Shown: positions 5,590 through 21,981 of the stretch, one piece after another
How positions within the stretch are numbered: position 1 is the stretch's first letter
Layout: each line of letters begins with the position of its first letter
NCBI GenBank assembly: GCA_050257855.1
Contig: JBLMXQ010000040.1
Span: 7,059-71,058 of the forward strand
Direction of reading: 5' to 3'
Length of the DNA: 64,000 nucleotides
Source: Betaproteobacteria bacterium
GTDB taxonomy: Bacteria; Acidobacteriota; Vicinamibacteria; Vicinamibacterales; CAVVIG01
Translations under genes and position numbers: made by a program
The notes under the pieces: generated by a model
The model's input: only the letters and a program-made list of their open reading frames with translations
Database searches by the model: none
What the model was told of the DNA's origin: nothing

Positions 5590-6284
5590 TCACCGTACGT
5601 CACGCCGGCCAGCGGCTGCACACGCACCTCGGCTGGCTCGACAGCTGGCACACGTTCTCGTTCGGCGAGCACTACGACCCTCGCTACATGGGGTTTCGCG
5701 CTCTTCGCGTCATCAACGACGATCGCGTGGCGCCGGGGCAGGGATTCGGCACGCATCCGCACCGCGACATGGAGATCCTGTCGTACGTGCTCGAAGGCGC
5801 GCTGAAACACCGCGACAGCCTCGGTACCGGATCGATGATCGGCGCAGGGGACGTGCAGCGGATGACGGCGGGCACCGGCGTGCTGCACAGCGAGTTCAAC
5901 GCGTCGGATACGGAGCCGGTGCACTTCATCCAGATCTGGATCGAGCCGGAGCGCCAGCGCCTCGAGCCCGAGTACGAACAGCGTCCGTTTCCACCGGCGG
6001 CGCGCCGCGGCCGGCTGACGCTGCTTGCGTCACGGGACGGGCGCGCTGACTCGCTGAGGATTCACCAGGACGTCGATCTCTTCTCGGCCGCGCTCGCGCC
6101 TTCCGACGGCGTTTCGCACTCGATGCGACCCGATCGCCACGCATGGGTGCAGGTCGCGCGCGGCGCCGTGCAACTCAACGGTGTGCGGCTGTCGGCCGGC
6201 GACGGCGCGGCGATCAGCAACGAGTCGGCGCTCGAACTGTCCTCATCGGAAGACAGCGAAGCGCTGCTGTTCGATCTCGTCTGA
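5586..6284 (+). CDS. Pirin family protein (bicupin)
   Basis: ATG 5586 overlaps the upstream stop (ATGA). MITVRHAGQRLHTHLGWLDSWHTFSFGEHYDP...GFGTHPHRDMEILSYVLEGAL is a canonical pirin N-terminal cupin with the HxH...E metal site. Confidence 0.9.
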   Translation: MITVRHAGQRLHTHLGWLDSWHTFSFGEHYDPRYMGFRALRVINDDRVAPGQGFGTHPHRDMEILSYVLEGALKHRDSLGTGSMIGAGDVQRMTAGTGVLHSEFNASDTEPVHFIQIWIEPERQRLEPEYEQRPFPPAARRGRLTLLASRDGRADSLRIHQDVDLFSAALAPSDGVSHSMRPDRHAWVQVARGAVQLNGVRLSAGDGAAISNESALELSSSEDSEALLFDLV

Positions 6285-10946: not shown

Positions 10947-12284
10947 CTACAGCGTGACCGCCCTGTCGGTGATCTCCAGGCCGCGATCGATGATCGCGAA
11001 CGCCTCGCGCATCTCCGGTTCGGTGATGCAGAGCGGCGGGTTCGTGAAGAACGAGTTCCAGCGGACGAACGTGTAGAGCCCCTCCTGGCGGAAGAAGCGG
11101 CCGAGCGCCGCCATCTCCTCCGACGTGCCGTTGAACGGCGCCATCGGCTCCTTCGTCTGGCGGTTCCGGATCAGCTCCACGAGACCGAACAGCCCGATCG
11201 ACCGCACCGCGCCGACCGACGGGTGCCGCACGGCGATGTCGGTCATCAGGTCCGACATCAGCGATCCCATCCGCTTCGCGTTCTCGATCAGCCGGTCTTC
11301 CTCGTAGACCTGCAGCGTCGCGAGCGCCGCGGCGCAGGCCAGCGGATGGCTGTTGTAGGTCAGCCCGCCGTAGAACACCCGATCCCTGAACTGATCGGCG
11401 ACGCCGCGGCGCATGCCGACGGCGCCGAGCGGAACGTACGCGCTCGTCAGCCCCTTCGCCATCGTCATGATGTCGGGCACGACGTTCCAGTGGTTGACGG
11501 CGAACCACGCGCCGGTCCGGCCGAAGCCCGACATCACCTCGTCGCAGATCATCAGGATGCCGTGCTTCGTGCACAGTTCGCGGACGCCCTGCAGGTACCC
11601 ATCGGGCGGGACGAGCACGCCGTTGGTGCCGGTGACCGTCTCCAGGATGAAGGCGGCGATCGTCTGCGGTCCCTCCAGCTGGATGACCTCCTCGAGCATC
11701 CCGAGCGATTCGTCGGCCGAATCCCACCCGCGCTCGATGCCGTGGTACGGGTCGAGCACGTGGACGACGCCCGGCAGCCCCGGCTCGGCGGCCCAGCGGC
11801 GGGGATCCCCGGTCAGGGAGATCGCGCCGGCCGTGGCGCCGTGGTAGGAGCGGTAGCGGGCCAGGATCTTGTGACGACCGGTCGCCAGGCGCGCCAGCTT
11901 CATGGCGTTCTCGTTCGCCTCGGCGCCGCCGTTCGTGAAGAAGAACACGTCGATGTCGCCCGGCGCAATCGCCGCGAGCCGCGCGCCCAGGCGCGCGCGC
12001 ACCTCGGTGGCCATGAACGGGTTCGCATAGGCGAGCGTCGAGGCCTGCTCGTGAATGGCGCGCACGACGCGCTCGTCGCCGTGCCCGATGTTCACGCACA
12101 TCAACTGGCTGTTGAAGTCGATGAAGCGCTTGCCCTCAGGCGTCCAGAAGTAGATCCCCTTGGCGCGCGCCACGGGAATGGGATCCACCTTCGACTGCGC
12201 CGACCACTCGTAGAGCGTGTGCGCCTTCGATCCGGCGATCATCTCTTCGCCGGTCATCGTCTTTGCAGTCGTGTCAGTTGCCAT
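10947..12284 (-). CDS. Class-III (omega) aminotransferase, beta-alanine/taurine:pyruvate-type
   Basis: ATG 12284 has GAGG 8 nt upstream. Motifs: FTNGGAEANENAMKLAR, ICDEVMSGFGRTGAWFA, DIMTMAKGLTSAY (PLP-lysine), typical of PLP fold-type I class III enzymes. Confidence 0.9.
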   Translation of the reverse strand: MATDTTAKTMTGEEMIAGSKAHTLYEWSAQSKVDPIPVARAKGIYFWTPEGKRFIDFNSQLMCVNIGHGDERVVRAIHEQASTLAYANPFMATEVRARLGARLAAIAPGDIDVFFFTNGGAEANENAMKLARLATGRHKILARYRSYHGATAGAISLTGDPRRWAAEPGLPGVVHVLDPYHGIERGWDSADESLGMLEEVIQLEGPQTIAAFILETVTGTNGVLVPPDGYLQGVRELCTKHGILMICDEVMSGFGRTGAWFAVNHWNVVPDIMTMAKGLTSAYVPLGAVGMRRGVADQFRDRVFYGGLTYNSHPLACAAALATLQVYEEDRLIENAKRMGSLMSDLMTDIAVRHPSVGAVRSIGLFGLVELIRNRQTKEPMAPFNGTSEEMAALGRFFRQEGLYTFVRWNSFFTNPPLCITEPEMREAFAIIDRGLEITDRAVTL

Positions 12285-18510: not shown

Positions 18511-19971
18511 CTACCGATATCGAGCCGTGACGACCTTCTGTTCCGTGTAGAACCGCACGCCGTCCTTGCCATGGGCGTGGAGATCACCGAAGAACGACCC
18601 TTTCCAGCCGCTGAACGGGAAGACTGCGTACGGCGCCGGCACGCCGACGTTCACCCCGACCATGCCCGCCTCGACCTCGCTGACGAACCGGCGGACGGCC
18701 GAGGCATCGCTCGTGAAGATCACCGCGCCGTTGCCGTGCGCCGACCGGTTCACGACCGCGAGCGCCTCGTCGAGGCTCGCCACGCGGATGATCGAGAGGA
18801 CCGGGCCGAAGATCTCCTCGCGCGCGATCCGCATCGACGGCGAGACGCGATCGAAGACCGTCGCCCCGACGAAGTACCCGCCCTCCGGTCCCTTCGCGCG
18901 CCCGTCGAGCGCCAGGCTCGCGCCCTCCTTCACGCCGATATCGATGTAGGAGAGCACTCGCTCGCGCTGGGCGGCGTTGACGACCGGCCCCATCTCGCAG
19001 CCGGGCGCGTCGCCGGGCCCTACCTTCAGCGACGCGGCACGCTCGGTCAGCCTCGCCACCAGCACGTCGTTCGGATCGACGACGACCGCCACGCTGCCCG
19101 CCATGCACCGCTGGCCGGAAGATCCGAACGCCGAACCGAGAATCGCGTCCACCGCCGGCTCCACGTCGGCGTCGGGCATCACGACCATGTGGTTCTTCGC
19201 GCCGCCGAGCGCCTGCACGCGCTTGCCGAGCCCGGCCGCGCGCGCGTAGACCGCGGCGGCCGCCGCGCTCGATCCGACGATCGACACGGCGCGCACGAGC
19301 GGATGATCGATGAGCTGCTCGACCTGCCGCGCGCTGCCGTGGACGAGGCTGACGACGCCGGGCGGAAGCCCGGTTTCGGCCAGGAGCTCCACCAGCCGCA
19401 CGGCGGTCAGCGGCACCTTCTCGGACGGCTTCAGCACGAACGAGTTGCCGCAGGCGATCGCAATCGGCAGCATCCAGAGCGGCACCATCGCCGGAAAGTT
19501 GAACGGTGTGATGCCGACGCAGACGCCGAGCGGCTGGCGCAGACTGTAGGCGTCGACGCCGGTCGCCACGTTCTCGAGGGTCTCGCCCATCATCAGCGTC
19601 GGAATGCCGCAGGCGAACTCGACGACCTCGATGCCGCGCTGCACCGAGCCGCGGGCATCCTCGAGCGCCTTGCCGTGCTCGCGCGTGATGAGCCGGGCGA
19701 TCTCCTCCTTGTGCGCGTCGAGCAGGTCGCGATACCTGAACAGGTACCTGGCGCGCGCCGGCGTCGGCACGCGCCGCCACTGCCGGAACGCGCGGTCGGC
19801 CGCCGCAACGGTCTCGTCTATTTCCGCGGCGGTGCACAGTGGCGCGGCGGCGATGACCTCGCCGGTCGCCGGGTTGTGCACGTCGAGGCGCTCGCCGGCC
19901 GACGACTCGCGCCAGACGCCGTTGCTGAAGAACCGGCACGCCGCCGCACCGGAGCGTGTGGCCACAGTCAT
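18511..19971 (-). CDS. mmsA: CoA-acylating methylmalonate/malonate-semialdehyde dehydrogenase
   Basis: ALDH superfamily with MmsA-type features: FNFPAMVPLWMLPIAIACGNSFVLKPSE, GSSGQRCMA (catalytic Cys), and the C-terminal FPFSGWKGSFFGDLHAHGKDGVRFYT typical of MmsA. GGAG lies 9 nt upstream of ATG 19971. Confidence 0.88.
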   Translation of the reverse strand: MTVATRSGAAACRFFSNGVWRESSAGERLDVHNPATGEVIAAAPLCTAAEIDETVAAADRAFRQWRRVPTPARARYLFRYRDLLDAHKEEIARLITREHGKALEDARGSVQRGIEVVEFACGIPTLMMGETLENVATGVDAYSLRQPLGVCVGITPFNFPAMVPLWMLPIAIACGNSFVLKPSEKVPLTAVRLVELLAETGLPPGVVSLVHGSARQVEQLIDHPLVRAVSIVGSSAAAAAVYARAAGLGKRVQALGGAKNHMVVMPDADVEPAVDAILGSAFGSSGQRCMAGSVAVVVDPNDVLVARLTERAASLKVGPGDAPGCEMGPVVNAAQRERVLSYIDIGVKEGASLALDGRAKGPEGGYFVGATVFDRVSPSMRIAREEIFGPVLSIIRVASLDEALAVVNRSAHGNGAVIFTSDASAVRRFVSEVEAGMVGVNVGVPAPYAVFPFSGWKGSFFGDLHAHGKDGVRFYTEQKVVTARYR

Positions 19972-19995: not shown

Positions 19996-20024
19996 CTTTT
20001 ACTAGAAAGATGCAAGGTTGTCAA
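19996..20024 (-). promoter_or_regulatory. Candidate sigma70-type promoter of the mmsA-receptor-peptidase operon
   Basis: On the minus strand: TTGACA (20024-20019), 17 nt, TAAAAG (20001-19996). It lies in the AT-richest intergenic stretch, about 25 nt upstream of ATG 19971. Confidence 0.45.
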
Positions 20025-20032
20025 ACTTTGCA
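20011..20032. promoter_or_regulatory. Imperfect palindrome, candidate operator of the MerR-XRE-cupin regulator
   Basis: TGCAAGGTT-gtca-AACTTTGCA has 8 of 9 arm positions complementary. It is centred on the shared TTGTCAA/TTGACAA core that provides the -35 hexamers of both divergent promoters. Confidence 0.4.
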
Positions 20033-20047
20033 GCTTTCTTGTAGGAT
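20018..20047 (+). promoter_or_regulatory. Candidate promoter of the regulator/S58 operon
   Basis: TTGTCA (20018-20023), 18 nt, TAGGAT (20042-20047), 17 nt upstream of ATG 20065. Confidence 0.35.
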
Positions 20048-20064: not shown

Positions 20065-20862
20065 ATGCCCCGCCCAACCCGGCTCGGCTTCCTGACCGTC
20101 GGTCAGACGGCGCGCATCCTCGGGGTGAGCCCGTCCACGCTCCGCCTCTGGGAAAACGTCGGACTGGTCGTGCCCGCGCGGAGCGACGGCCGCTACCGGC
20201 TGTACAGCCCCGATCTGATCAAGGTCCTCAAGCGCATCAAGTACCTGCGGGACGTGAAGCAGCTCAACGTGCCCGGCATCAAGCAGGCGCTCGGGCGGCC
20301 GGCCGTCGCCAGCGGCCACGCCGCGCCGGCCAGTTTCGGCCCGAAGCTGCGGAAGCTGCGCCAGCGCAGCGGCCTCGGCATCGCCGCCGCCGCCAGGCGC
20401 GCCCAGATCTCGGCCGGCTTCCTGAGCGCCGTCGAGCGCGCCAACGCCAACCCGTCCGTCGCCACGCTGCAGCGGCTCGCCAAGGCGTACGGCACGACCG
20501 TGCTGGAGCTGTTCAACCTGCCGCGCCAGGCCTCGCGTCTGGTGCGCGCGCGCGACCGCCGCGCCCTCCAGACTCACGCCGGCGTTACGATGGAGCTGCT
20601 CTCCACCGGCACGACGATGCTGGAGTCGATGCTGTTCCGCGTCGCGCCGGGAGGCGGCAGCGACGGCGCCTACTCGCACCAGGGCGAGGAGTTCATCTAC
20701 ATGCTGAGCGGTACACTCGAGCTCTGGCTCGACGAGTTCGAATGTCACAAGCTCCAGGAAGGCGACAGCTTCTGGTTCGAGAGCACGCTCGGCCATCGGT
20801 GGTACAACCCGTCTAAAGAGGACGCGGTGCTGTTGTGGATCAACACACCGCCGACGTTCTAG
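20065..20862 (+). CDS. Three-domain transcriptional regulator: MerR-type HTH + XRE (Cro/C1) HTH + cupin
   Basis: Residues 1-70: LTVGQTARILGVSPSTLRLWENVGLVVPARSDGRYRLYSPDLIKVLKRIKYLR (MerR HTH). Middle: GPKLRKLRQRSGLGIAAAARRAQISAGFLSAVERANANPSVATLQRLAKAYGTTVLELF (HTH_3). C-terminus: SHQGEEFIYMLSGTLELWLDEFECHKLQEGDSFWFESTLGHRWYN (cupin_2). This is the in-frame tail of the shadow ORF 17893..20862. Confidence 0.8.
   Translation: MPRPTRLGFLTVGQTARILGVSPSTLRLWENVGLVVPARSDGRYRLYSPDLIKVLKRIKYLRDVKQLNVPGIKQALGRPAVASGHAAPASFGPKLRKLRQRSGLGIAAAARRAQISAGFLSAVERANANPSVATLQRLAKAYGTTVLELFNLPRQASRLVRARDRRALQTHAGVTMELLSTGTTMLESMLFRVAPGGGSDGAYSHQGEEFIYMLSGTLELWLDEFECHKLQEGDSFWFESTLGHRWYNPSKEDAVLLWINTPPTF

Positions 20863-20883: not shown

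Positions 20884-21981
<1,098 letters not shown>

Follow-up and report, generated by a model that had tools for sequence, protein, structure and literature searches.

A multi-phylum family of PuuR-like XRE–cupin regulators with an added N-terminal MerR-type winged helix–turn–helix

Main

What does a bacterial regulator do with a pair of unrelated DNA-binding domains on a single chain, and which genes does it serve? Bacterial transcription factors of this kind are rarely studied, and one of them is encoded in the 64,000-nucleotide stretch of DNA analysed here (the window), where an open reading frame (ORF) on the plus strand at 20065..20862 combines a MerR-type winged helix–turn–helix (HTH), an XRE-type HTH and a cupin sensor. 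Here, we bring together profile searches, structure prediction, homologue comparison and promoter analysis to place this protein among known regulators, and weigh how it may act on the divergent promoters beside its gene.

Results

The ORF (P0001) runs from an ATG at 20065 to a TAG stop at 20860–20862 and encodes a product of 265 aa, with full-length homologues at 61–91% identity; read from the sequence, no alternative in-frame start lies upstream between the start of mmsA (19971) and 20065. Three domains follow one another along the chain, all of them above the Pfam gathering cut-offs. The MerR-type winged HTH occupies aa 11–76 (plus strand, 20095..20292; α1–α2, wing, α3–α4) and is recognised by MerR_1 over that range (E 1.6e-18, 67 bits against a cut-off of 21.6) and by MerR at aa 11–47 (47.5 bits against 28.2). 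After a linker comes an XRE, or Cro/C1-type, HTH at aa 91–149 (plus strand, 20335..20511), delimited by HTH_31 (aa 91–146, E 5e-15, 56 bits against 27), by HTH_3 (aa 95–149, E 1.8e-12, 47.5 bits against 23) and by alignment with the PuuR HTH. The cupin β-barrel sensor at aa 160–261 (plus strand, 20542..20847) is defined by Cupin_2 (aa 190–259, E 1.7e-18, 66.5 bits against 27.2), by Foldseek and by the strands of the AlphaFold2 (AF2) model, which span residues 167–261.

This model (pLDDT 91.3, pTM 0.73) builds the MerR module from helices 12–19, 23–31, 49–63 and 69–75 with a wing at 38–47. The last of these helices ends at residue 75, from where a low-confidence linker (76–91) leads directly into the five helices of the XRE domain. 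Its stretch aa 77–90 (plus strand, 20293..20334) is marked as unconserved and flexible by pLDDT (mean 60 for the 10-residue block 81–90), by conservation and by its varying length among homologues. The classical MerR dimerisation helix α5, which forms a long antiparallel coiled coil, is absent from the model, and the MerR_1 alignment stops at profile position 66 of 69. Residues 1–9 are coil at low confidence, with 10 residues before the first helix, and an N-terminal helix α1′ of the TnrA/GlnR type is not predicted in this protein. Many homologues carry 10–25 extra N-terminal residues, and the AF2 result concerns the protein of the window alone. The earlier note on this DNA had described the same ORF as a MerR HTH, an XRE HTH and a cupin in one chain that lacks the MerR coiled coil. 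All of this holds, every peptide stretch quoted there is present in the translation, and a spurious N-terminal match is countered by the MerR_1 score and by an AF2 secondary structure consistent with such a domain.

The three-domain order is shared by the best 120 of 3252 homologues. It is complete in 76 of 76 cluster representatives, down to 30% identity, although these were picked by length and coverage to be full-length only, and apparent two-domain relatives among representatives are indistinguishable from truncated gene calls. Family members occur in Acidobacteriota, in Rhizobiaceae (including pSymB of S. meliloti 1021) and in a clostridium, and a Gemmatimonadales MAG holds one copy that is truncated by the contig end. 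Among complete plasmid records of Rhizobiaceae and relatives in culture, 130 have the three domains in one frame, and of 300 further genomes sampled from the phylum, 12 contain an orthologue. The chance that a small MerR gene and an XRE–cupin gene were joined here by a sequencing or assembly error is practically nil: it is ruled out by the breadth of independent assemblies that hold the same architecture, and no point was found in its favour.

Sequence records name the members of this family only as ‘MerR family transcriptional regulator’. The earlier note had allowed for an architecture both abundant and already characterised; abundant it is, across several phyla, but neither a characterised member with all three domains (MerR, XRE and cupin) was found in the literature, including that on Rhizobium and S. 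meliloti gabT regulators, nor a solved structure of one in the PDB. A 2002 paper on R. leguminosarum gabT may deal with an adjacent regulator. We conclude that the protein belongs to a real, widespread but unstudied multi-phylum subfamily, in which a PuuR-like XRE–cupin protein carries an N-terminal MerR winged HTH.

Across the 76 representatives, R27 and R45 of the MerR module are invariant, with W29, E30 and R39 conserved in at least 90%; in the XRE module E124 is invariant, with R99 and S121 likewise conserved in at least 90%, and in the cupin residues H205, E209 and H244 are conserved. The top-residue frequency is 0.53 in the MerR module, 0.50 in the XRE module and 0.53 in the cupin, compared to 0.17 in the linker, whose length differs widely between homologues. 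Because both HTHs are equally conserved, neither appears to be a decayed module, DNA contact by both being a separate matter. When recognition helices were compared with operator variants across 46 orthologues, MerR α2 proved almost invariant and XRE α3 tracked phylogeny only, so that the comparison linked neither HTH to a part of the operator.

The part of the protein behind the linker resembles PuuR. Residues 92–265 align end to end with residues 9–185 of the Klebsiella protein (29% identity, E 1e-20), the two having in common HxGEE, the His of the second motif and a C-terminal TPxTF, and the regulator covers positions 7–185 of the 185 in the NCBIfam PuuR model NF007408. It is not a PuuR equivalog, because it scores 63.6 bits against a curated cut-off of 211. 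PuuR is the repressor of putrescine utilisation and binds a divergent intergenic region, from which it is freed by putrescine (PMC9951944). Both genes belong to clusters for amine catabolism that also encode an aldehyde dehydrogenase and an aminotransferase, whereas the regulator studied here is longer by an N-terminal MerR winged HTH and tether of 90 residues, and its context is a beta-alanine/GABA-type transaminase route with peptidases and a TonB receptor; the ligand is probably different too. Among solved structures, the best sequence match (E 5e-20) is 1y9q, a Vibrio cholerae HTH_3 family regulator from structural genomics, which is also the best Foldseek match (E 6e-14, TM 0.73 on the target, residues about 90–265) and differs in having no MerR domain and no known function. 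Experimentally studied XRE–cupin regulators are local repressors that act on palindromes in core promoters beside their own gene (PMC7901475), and those of Pseudomonas (PauR, PsdR, ErfA and others) are dimers, with autoregulation suspected for some (Trouillon et al. 2021, PMC7901475). The Pseudomonas proteins are specialised local regulators encoded beside their metabolic targets, and the regulator has a single candidate operator region in its genome, next to its own gene; they have two domains, with none reported to carry a MerR module, whereas it has three.

For residues about 3–113 of the family profile, the best solved match is GlnR, with CarH and TnrA next. The TnrA/GlnR branch and the regulator share a MerR-type winged HTH that lacks the coiled coil, and promoters with optimal spacing. 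TnrA and GlnR dimerise through an extra N-terminal helix α1′ of 11–20 residues and bind 17-bp TGTNA-N7-TNACA sites in promoters of optimal spacing (Schumacher et al. 2015, PMC4335299). Their glutamine-synthetase-binding tail is absent from the regulator, which has an XRE–cupin body instead. Other MerR-type winged HTHs that can bind DNA without a coiled coil are those of BldC, where oligomerisation is supplied by DNA repeats (PMC5859096), and of CarH, where it comes from another domain. A second, unrelated HTH is found in the regulator only and sets it apart from both. The eukaryotic POU domain also joins two different HTHs, one of them λ/434-repressor-like, through a flexible linker and places them on adjacent subsites; the likeness is an analogy only, with no whole-protein homology, and POU has no sensor domain.

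The regulator gene is the first of a plus-strand operon. A co-directional gene for a peptidase of family S58 (DmpA/BapA; plus strand, 20884..21981) lies 21 nt 3′ of it, and Pfam matches behind that gene identify a sodium:solute symporter (SSF), a short-chain dehydrogenase (SDR), Iso_dh and Amidohydro_2. In one metagenomic homologue (P0224), the regulator and the S58 peptidase are fused as a single polypeptide. The first divergent gene (minus strand, 18511..19971) is mmsA, which encodes a CoA-acylating methylmalonate/malonate-semialdehyde dehydrogenase (652 bits to TIGR01722, cut-off 448.5), and behind it on the same strand Pfam identifies a TonB-dependent receptor (TBDR), an M20 peptidase, an M28 peptidase and a class-III aminotransferase (10947–12284). 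A class-III aminotransferase or an mmsA-like dehydrogenase lies within 6 kb of the regulator gene at 34 of 42 genome loci, and the neighbourhood of aminotransferase and semialdehyde dehydrogenase recurs across phyla. Homologues in Rhizobiaceae (~43% identity) point away from gabT, which is accompanied by a semialdehyde dehydrogenase at some loci but not at others, and the homologue on pSymB of S. meliloti 1021 (NC_003078.1, 936864–937646) adjoins gabT; more distant members adjoin further genes of amine or amide catabolism, one example being an amine oxidase–ALDH–aminotransferase cluster. Most likely, the regulator controls the adjoining genes for the breakdown of beta-alanine/GABA-like amino compounds.

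The promoter region shared by the two operons holds a 44-bp inverted repeat at 20000..20043, a candidate composite operator with 20-nt arms (85% complementary) and a 4-nt centre, centred on a −35 box common to both divergent promoters. On the plus strand, a consensus scanner places the promoter of the regulator operon at 20018..20047 (−35 TTGTCA, 18-nt spacer, −10 TAGGAT; one site found compared to 0.0 expected in shuffles), and in orthologous loci with a recognisable downstream −10 this box likewise stands 17–18 nt after TTGTCA. The putative mmsA promoter on the minus strand (19996..20024), read by eye, would consist of −35 TTGACA (20024–20019), a 17-nt spacer and −10 TAAAAG (20001–19996). 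Its −10 box is weak, with no call there from the scanner, and its −35 box and the TA of its −10 are conserved in 24 aligned loci. Since both spacers are normal (17–18 nt), a MerR-style promoter distortion is unlikely. Each promoter contains, in its spacer and −10 box, one 17-bp unit of 5-N7-5 form: TTGCA-GCTTTCT-TGTAG for the regulator (plus strand, 20028..20044) and TTGCA-TCTTTCT-AGTAA for mmsA (minus strand, 19999..20015). The inner pentamers of the operator lie at 20011–20015 and 20028–20032, its outer pentamers at 19999–20003 and 20040–20044, and its centre at 20016–20027. The half-sites of the units, TTRCA-N7-WGYAR at the regulator loci, differ from the TGTNA-N7-TNACA of TnrA/GlnR, both being 17 bp in a 5-N7-5 arrangement.

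The central dyad of the repeat, TGCAAGGTTGTCAAACTTTGCA (20011..20032), is conserved in its left half, whereas its right-hand half is not conserved in many orthologous loci. The left 14-mer, TGCAAGGTTGTCAA (20011–20024), is the motif kept in these loci; it occurs once in the window, and its degenerate form, TGYANNGYTGTCAA, once in the whole 4.72-Mb genome. The operator motifs are found nowhere in that genome but at this promoter, a uniqueness that is partly circular because the patterns were partly derived from the window. With at most one mismatch, the core GTTGTCAA is present in 25 of 38 orthologous upstream regions, and the 24 alignable ones give the consensus aTGyAAgGTTGTCAA; as operator and promoter elements overlap, some of this conservation may belong to the promoter. 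In 10 of the 38 regions (0 in 200 shuffles), TTGACA has a 17-bp 5-N7-5 unit next to it, and many orthologous loci have one such unit only. TTGCA-N7-TGCAA is present in four of the five gabT-linked Rhizobiaceae loci examined, with the variant CTACATTTTTTCGGTAG in A. vitis, and the N7 spacer has an asymmetric, T-rich character in Acidobacteriota and Rhizobiaceae alike. At the distant loci L043, L044, L063 and L065 the 17-bp unit was not clearly found, and a partial resemblance was seen at the distant locus L064 and in Microvirga. The looser pattern TTRCA-N7-TGYAR is not enriched (3 matches compared to 34 for the reversed control).

The regulator had earlier been proposed to sit between two divergent catabolic operons as the likely master switch of the locus. 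It does lie at the operon junction, but as the head of the plus-strand operon and not as a free-standing gene, and the shared promoter region does hold the sole operator-like element of its kind in the genome. The regulator looks local, like other XRE–cupin regulators, and not like a master switch of anything wider.

Discussion

With modest confidence, we favour a model in which the protein is a PuuR-like, local, ligand-released repressor that carries an added MerR winged HTH on a flexible tether. The regulator would dimerise through its XRE–cupin body, and the dimer would bind the 44-bp inverted repeat over the shared −35 box, where it would block RNA polymerase at both the mmsA-TBDR-M20-M28-aminotransferase and the regulator-S58-SSF-SDR operons. 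Release would follow when a pathway inducer, most likely an omega-amino acid (beta-alanine, for example) or the corresponding semialdehyde, enters the cupin pocket (H205/E209/H244), possibly with the assistance of a metal. Both HTH modules would contact DNA, the MerR module adding contacts within the extended operator and acting without the classical MerR promoter distortion. The parts of this model that we infer are repression, which only analogy suggests over activation, the dimeric state, the inducer and the assignment of HTHs to subsites. As a counterpoint to repression, the weak −10 box of mmsA could point to an activator-dependent promoter.

We further propose, tentatively and as a possible rather than a probable arrangement, that within one protomer the two HTHs recognise neighbouring but different subsites of the asymmetric TTRCA-T-rich N7-WGYAR 17-bp unit, such that a cupin-mediated dimer would set four HTHs on the 44-bp repeat. 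This is consistent with the T-rich, asymmetric N7 of Acidobacteriota and Rhizobiaceae, with a flexible tether of varying length and with the equal conservation of both HTHs. If true, bacteria would have a ligand-gated equivalent of the bipartite recognition seen in POU domains.

It seems to us unlikely that DNA is bound by a single HTH module while the second has been recruited for a different role. Either a MerR-like winged HTH pair would recognise the 17-bp 5-N7-5 units in the manner of TnrA/GlnR, with the XRE part as a structural α-domain of the cupin as in HppE, or operator recognition would fall to an XRE pair as in PuuR, with the MerR module oligomerising or contacting RNA polymerase. 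HppE enzymes, non-regulatory proteins with an XRE-like α-domain and a cupin, are indeed among the top fold matches in Foldseek, and the best matches of the MerR part (GlnR, then CarH and TnrA) all work without a coiled coil. The 17-bp units stand, moreover, at promoters with 17–18 nt spacers like GlnR/TnrA sites (PMC4335299), and the one unit present at many orthologous loci would be enough for a single HTH pair. What speaks for two readers is that the equal conservation of the HTHs extends to canonical DNA-contact positions (MerR R27, R39 and R45; XRE R99, S121 and E124) and that the XRE recognition helix (residues 116–122) resembles that of PuuR, which binds DNA. The dimerisation helix that TnrA/GlnR use is, in turn, not predicted by AF2, which models residues 1–9 as coil.

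That the protein could be a classical MerR-type activator, sitting in the promoter spacer and, once ligand-bound, untwisting the DNA to realign −35 and −10, we regard as very improbable, even though its MerR_1 domain is genuine, the 17-bp units are placed between −35 and −10 of both promoters and the putative mmsA −10 box is weak. The spacers measure 18 and 17 nt, in contrast to the 19–20 nt of MerR-dependent promoters (PMC5859096, PMC4335299), and the coiled coil for the allosteric twist is absent from the AF2 model. An unconserved tether of varying length between the MerR module and the sensor would also be a poor conduit for torsion.

The repressor model bears on how the family is read in databases. 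The label ‘MerR family transcriptional regulator’ on thousands of such proteins suggests a metal- or stress-responsive, DNA-twisting activator, whereas the evidence favours a local repressor of the PuuR type that acts on amine and omega-amino-acid catabolism. Because S. meliloti 1021 is genetically amenable and has a homologue beside gabT on its pSymB, the family is a tractable case for transcription factors with two unrelated DNA-binding domains. Once its ligand and operator logic are worked out, regulons in Acidobacteriota and rhizobia would be predicted better, and the family could provide a new scaffold for biosensors of beta-alanine/GABA-type compounds.

The regulator and its three domains

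The regulator gene P0001 (20065-20862, plus strand) starts at an ATG at 20065, stops at 20860-20862 and encodes a product of 265 residues, and on reading the sequence no other in-frame start was found from the start of the divergent mmsA gene (19971) to 20065. The earlier note had read a MerR-type HTH, an XRE HTH and a cupin in this one ORF, and all the peptide strings that it quoted are found there. This reading holds at the profile level, where the regulator has three non-overlapping Pfam domains, each well over its gathering score: MerR_1 (residues 11-76, E = 1.6e-18), HTH_31/HTH_3 (residues 91-149, E = 5e-15 and 1.8e-12) and Cupin_2 (residues 190-259, E = 1.7e-18). The AlphaFold2 model, built with 76 homologues as input, is confident (pLDDT 91.3, pTM 0.73) and has a MerR winged HTH (helices 12-19, 23-31, 49-63 and 69-75; wing 38-47), a low-confidence linker (residues 76-91), a five-helix XRE domain and a beta-barrel. 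The model has no long a5 helix after the MerR module, so the regulator lacks the canonical MerR coiled coil, just as had been noticed from the sequence alone. The best solved match of the MerR part is GlnR, with CarH and TnrA close behind; all three have MerR-like DNA-binding domains that function without a coiled coil (PMC4335299), as does that of BldC (PMC5859096).

The remainder of the protein (residues 92-265) aligns end to end with residues 9-185 of Klebsiella PuuR (29% identity, E = 1e-20), sharing its HxGEE motif, the histidine of the second motif and a C-terminal TPxTF. The regulator covers positions 7-185 of the 185 in the NCBIfam PuuR model, yet its score of 63.6 bits falls under the cut-off of 211, so by sequence it is PuuR-like but not PuuR. 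Of the solved structures, 1y9q is its best relative by sequence and by fold alike; this is an XRE-cupin protein without a known function. No PDB entry with all three domains was found among the sequence and fold matches to solved structures.

A conserved subfamily in several phyla

There are 3,252 homologues of the regulator in a 90%-clustered collection, of which the best 120 (70-91% identity) all share its three-domain architecture; only a few have a name, either 'MerR family transcriptional regulator' or a MerR/cupin composite. When 1.84 billion 50%-cluster representatives were scanned exhaustively with HMMER, 151 clusters were obtained at E <= 1e-30. From these, 76 full-length representatives were chosen for their length and coverage, and at 63% down to 30% identity to the regulator all of them have MerR_1, HTH_3 and Cupin_2. 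Together, these two sets rule out the assembly error that the earlier note had considered, and the architecture, whose taxonomic spread it had proposed to count, is not rare and covers several phyla.

Within Acidobacteriota, homologues occur in Vicinamibacterales, Bryobacteraceae, Acidobacteriaceae and Solibacteraceae, with a patchy distribution: the gene, single copy in the source genome, is found in 12 of the 300 further genomes sampled (13 of 301 with the source genome). Alphaproteobacteria contribute 130 records, all of plasmids or chromids, with coverage of 80% or more and roughly 43% identity; they come from, for example, Sinorhizobium (S. meliloti 1021 pSymB included), Shinella, Agrobacterium vitis, Neorhizobium and Microvirga. 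Bacillota is represented by Acidaminobacter hydrogenoformans. In Gemmatimonadota, a single Gemmatimonadales MAG carries a copy whose N-terminal domain is not visible because a contig edge truncates it to residues 116-265. The three-domain regulators are thus a real, conserved, multi-phylum subfamily with generic annotation only, and no characterised member or solved structure was found in the searchable literature and structures.

Over the 76 representatives, the mean top-residue frequency is 0.53 for the MerR domain (0.61 for a1-a2 only), 0.50 for the XRE domain, 0.53 for the cupin and 0.17 for the linker. R27 (a2) and R45 (wing) of the MerR domain and E124 of the XRE domain are invariant, and R39, W29 and E30 in the former, R99 and S121 in the latter and H205, E209 and H244 in the cupin reach at least 90%; by motif, the cupin residues would occupy three of the four canonical metal-ligand positions. 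Judged by this conservation, neither HTH looks vestigial. The linker can be as short as about 14 residues or reach several tens among the representatives, and about 90 in some homologues, and the tether between the MerR and XRE modules looks flexible.

Other arrangements were also seen. In the HMMER scan, P0264 (391 residues) has one cupin preceded by two XRE HTH domains, a homotypic counterpart of the MerR and XRE arrangement, and P0230 (623 residues) has about eight MerR-HTH repeats in tandem. A further stretch of DNA, on the R. leguminosarum plasmid pPR4 (L062:4001-4270), has no annotation and encodes the MerR part alone (residues 12-100, 42% identity), with attM and an alcohol dehydrogenase gene about 2 kb away; it could be what remains of a gene for a three-domain regulator.

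Gene neighbourhood

The regulator is the first gene of a plus-strand operon with intergenic gaps of 18-66 nt, followed after 21 nt by a peptidase S58 gene of the DmpA/BapA family (20884-21981) and then by genes for an SSF transporter, an SDR, an Iso_dh-family dehydrogenase and an Amidohydro_2 protein. Upstream by 93 bp, mmsA (18511-19971; TIGR01722, 652 bits against a cut-off of 448.5) heads the minus-strand genes, which continue with a TonB-dependent receptor, an M20 deacylase/peptidase, an M28 peptidase and a class-III aminotransferase. In 34 of 42 genome loci, a gene for a class-III aminotransferase or mmsA-like dehydrogenase lies no more than 6 kb away, and the immediate divergent neighbour is an aminotransferase in nine, mmsA in eight and M20 in four. 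The homologues of Shinella and S. meliloti are divergent from an aminotransferase and a semialdehyde dehydrogenase (annotated in Shinella as gabT and succinate-semialdehyde dehydrogenase), and that of A. vitis from gabT alone. Other genes for amine or amide catabolism lie beside more distant members: a cluster of amine oxidase, ALDH and aminotransferase, a hydantoinase with a D-amino-acid-oxidase-family (DAO) flavoprotein, amidohydrolases, or peptidase S9 and arginase. Amine and omega-amino-acid catabolism is the theme common to these loci, and transaminase with semialdehyde dehydrogenase forms the core that is kept between phyla.

At one locus (L063:6001-7682), two tandem three-domain paralogues (275 and 271 residues) lie 38 nt apart, with genes for a peptidase S9, an amidohydrolase and an arginase on either side of the pair. 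Five metagenomic proteins from the HMMER scan are putative fusions of the whole regulator, with Peptidase_S58 in P0224 (640 residues) and with a proline-racemase-family domain in P0216, P0248, P0255 and P0220 (554-634 residues); the former parallels the S58 gene next to the regulator in the window.

A candidate operator over two predicted divergent promoters

The 93-bp intergenic region has 47% G+C, compared to roughly 70% in its flanks, and contains a 44-bp inverted repeat with 85% complementary arms (20000-20019 and 20024-20043) centred on TTGTCA/TTGACA (20018-20024). On the plus strand, the scanner placed the regulator promoter here (-35 TTGTCA, 18 nt, -10 TAGGAT; one site against 0.0 expected), and by our own reading the same hexamer region would double as the -35 of a minus-strand mmsA promoter (TTGACA, 17 nt, TAAAAG). 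Two 17-bp units in mirror orientation, one per promoter, occupy the spacer and -10 region of mmsA (19999-20015, minus strand) and of the regulator (20028-20044, plus strand). The unit pattern is absent from the rest of the 64-kb window (<= 2 mismatches) and of the 4.72-Mb genome (<= 1 mismatch), where a conserved 14-mer in the degenerate form TGYANNGYTGTCAA also occurs only once, although these patterns were partly derived from the window itself.

The core GTTGTCAA (<= 1 mismatch) is found in 25 of 38 orthologous upstream regions, irrespective of the divergent catabolic gene, and 24 alignable regions give the consensus aTGyAAgGTTGTCAA. Ten of the 38 have the 17-bp unit, WTRCA-N7-WGYAR, after TTGACA, compared to none in 200 shuffles. 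An identical TTGCATTTTTTCTGCAA lies upstream of the aminotransferase in four of five gabT-linked Rhizobiaceae loci examined, with a second, direct copy in Shinella; A. vitis has the variant CTACATTTTTTCGGTAG, and Microvirga also has a close variant. Given these matches in Acidobacteriota and Rhizobiaceae, a 5-N7-5 unit whose core is TGCA and whose centre is T-rich goes with the regulator in two phyla.

An Acidobacteriaceae locus (L033:1-45) has the core twice in direct tandem (TGCAAGGTTGTCAATAGTATGCAAGGTTGTCAATAATAT). Upstream of another orthologue (L008, about 5840-5940), the conserved operator is missing, and tandem GGCTAAT-like heptamers followed by reverse-complement repeats (CCATTAG) form a long inverted array. 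In the window, the regulator -10 box (20042-20047) ends 17 nt ahead of the ATG, so the mRNA leader should be only about 10 nt, and the sequence between them has no Shine-Dalgarno; the homologous locus L001 has the same -10/ATG layout.

Proposed mode of action

The best-supported reading is that the regulator would be a local repressor of both divergent operons, freed by a ligand and also acting on its own expression. It is favoured because the body of the protein is PuuR-like, because the XRE-cupin regulators tested so far are local repressors with palindromes in core promoters beside their own gene (PMC7901475), because the candidate operator sits on the common -35 box and in both spacers, and because the motif is confined to one locus. 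Putrescine frees PuuR from a divergent intergenic region (PMC9951944); here, gene context suggests that the inducer may be beta-alanine or a similar omega-amino acid, the corresponding semialdehyde, or a beta-alanyl peptide. Classical MerR activation is unlikely, given the lack of a coiled coil, a floppy tether between the MerR module and the rest, and spacers of 17-18 nt, not 19-20 nt.

How a local repressor of this kind would use its second HTH can be modelled in three ways, all of which remain after a comparison of recognition helices with operator variants that did not separate them. A homodimeric XRE pair could read a dyad while the MerR modules give flanking contacts; or a MerR-like pair could read the 17-bp units like TnrA/GlnR, with the XRE domain serving mainly as a structural element, as it does in HppE, one of the top fold matches of the regulator; or the two HTHs of each protomer could read differing halves of an asymmetric unit, such that a dimer would set four HTHs on the 44-bp repeat.

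The subfamily is one of XRE-cupin local regulators with a grafted MerR-type DNA-binding domain, not a categorically new system. Its interest lies in the thousands of genes that are likely mis-annotated, in the dual-HTH logic and in S. meliloti 1021 as a ready experimental system.
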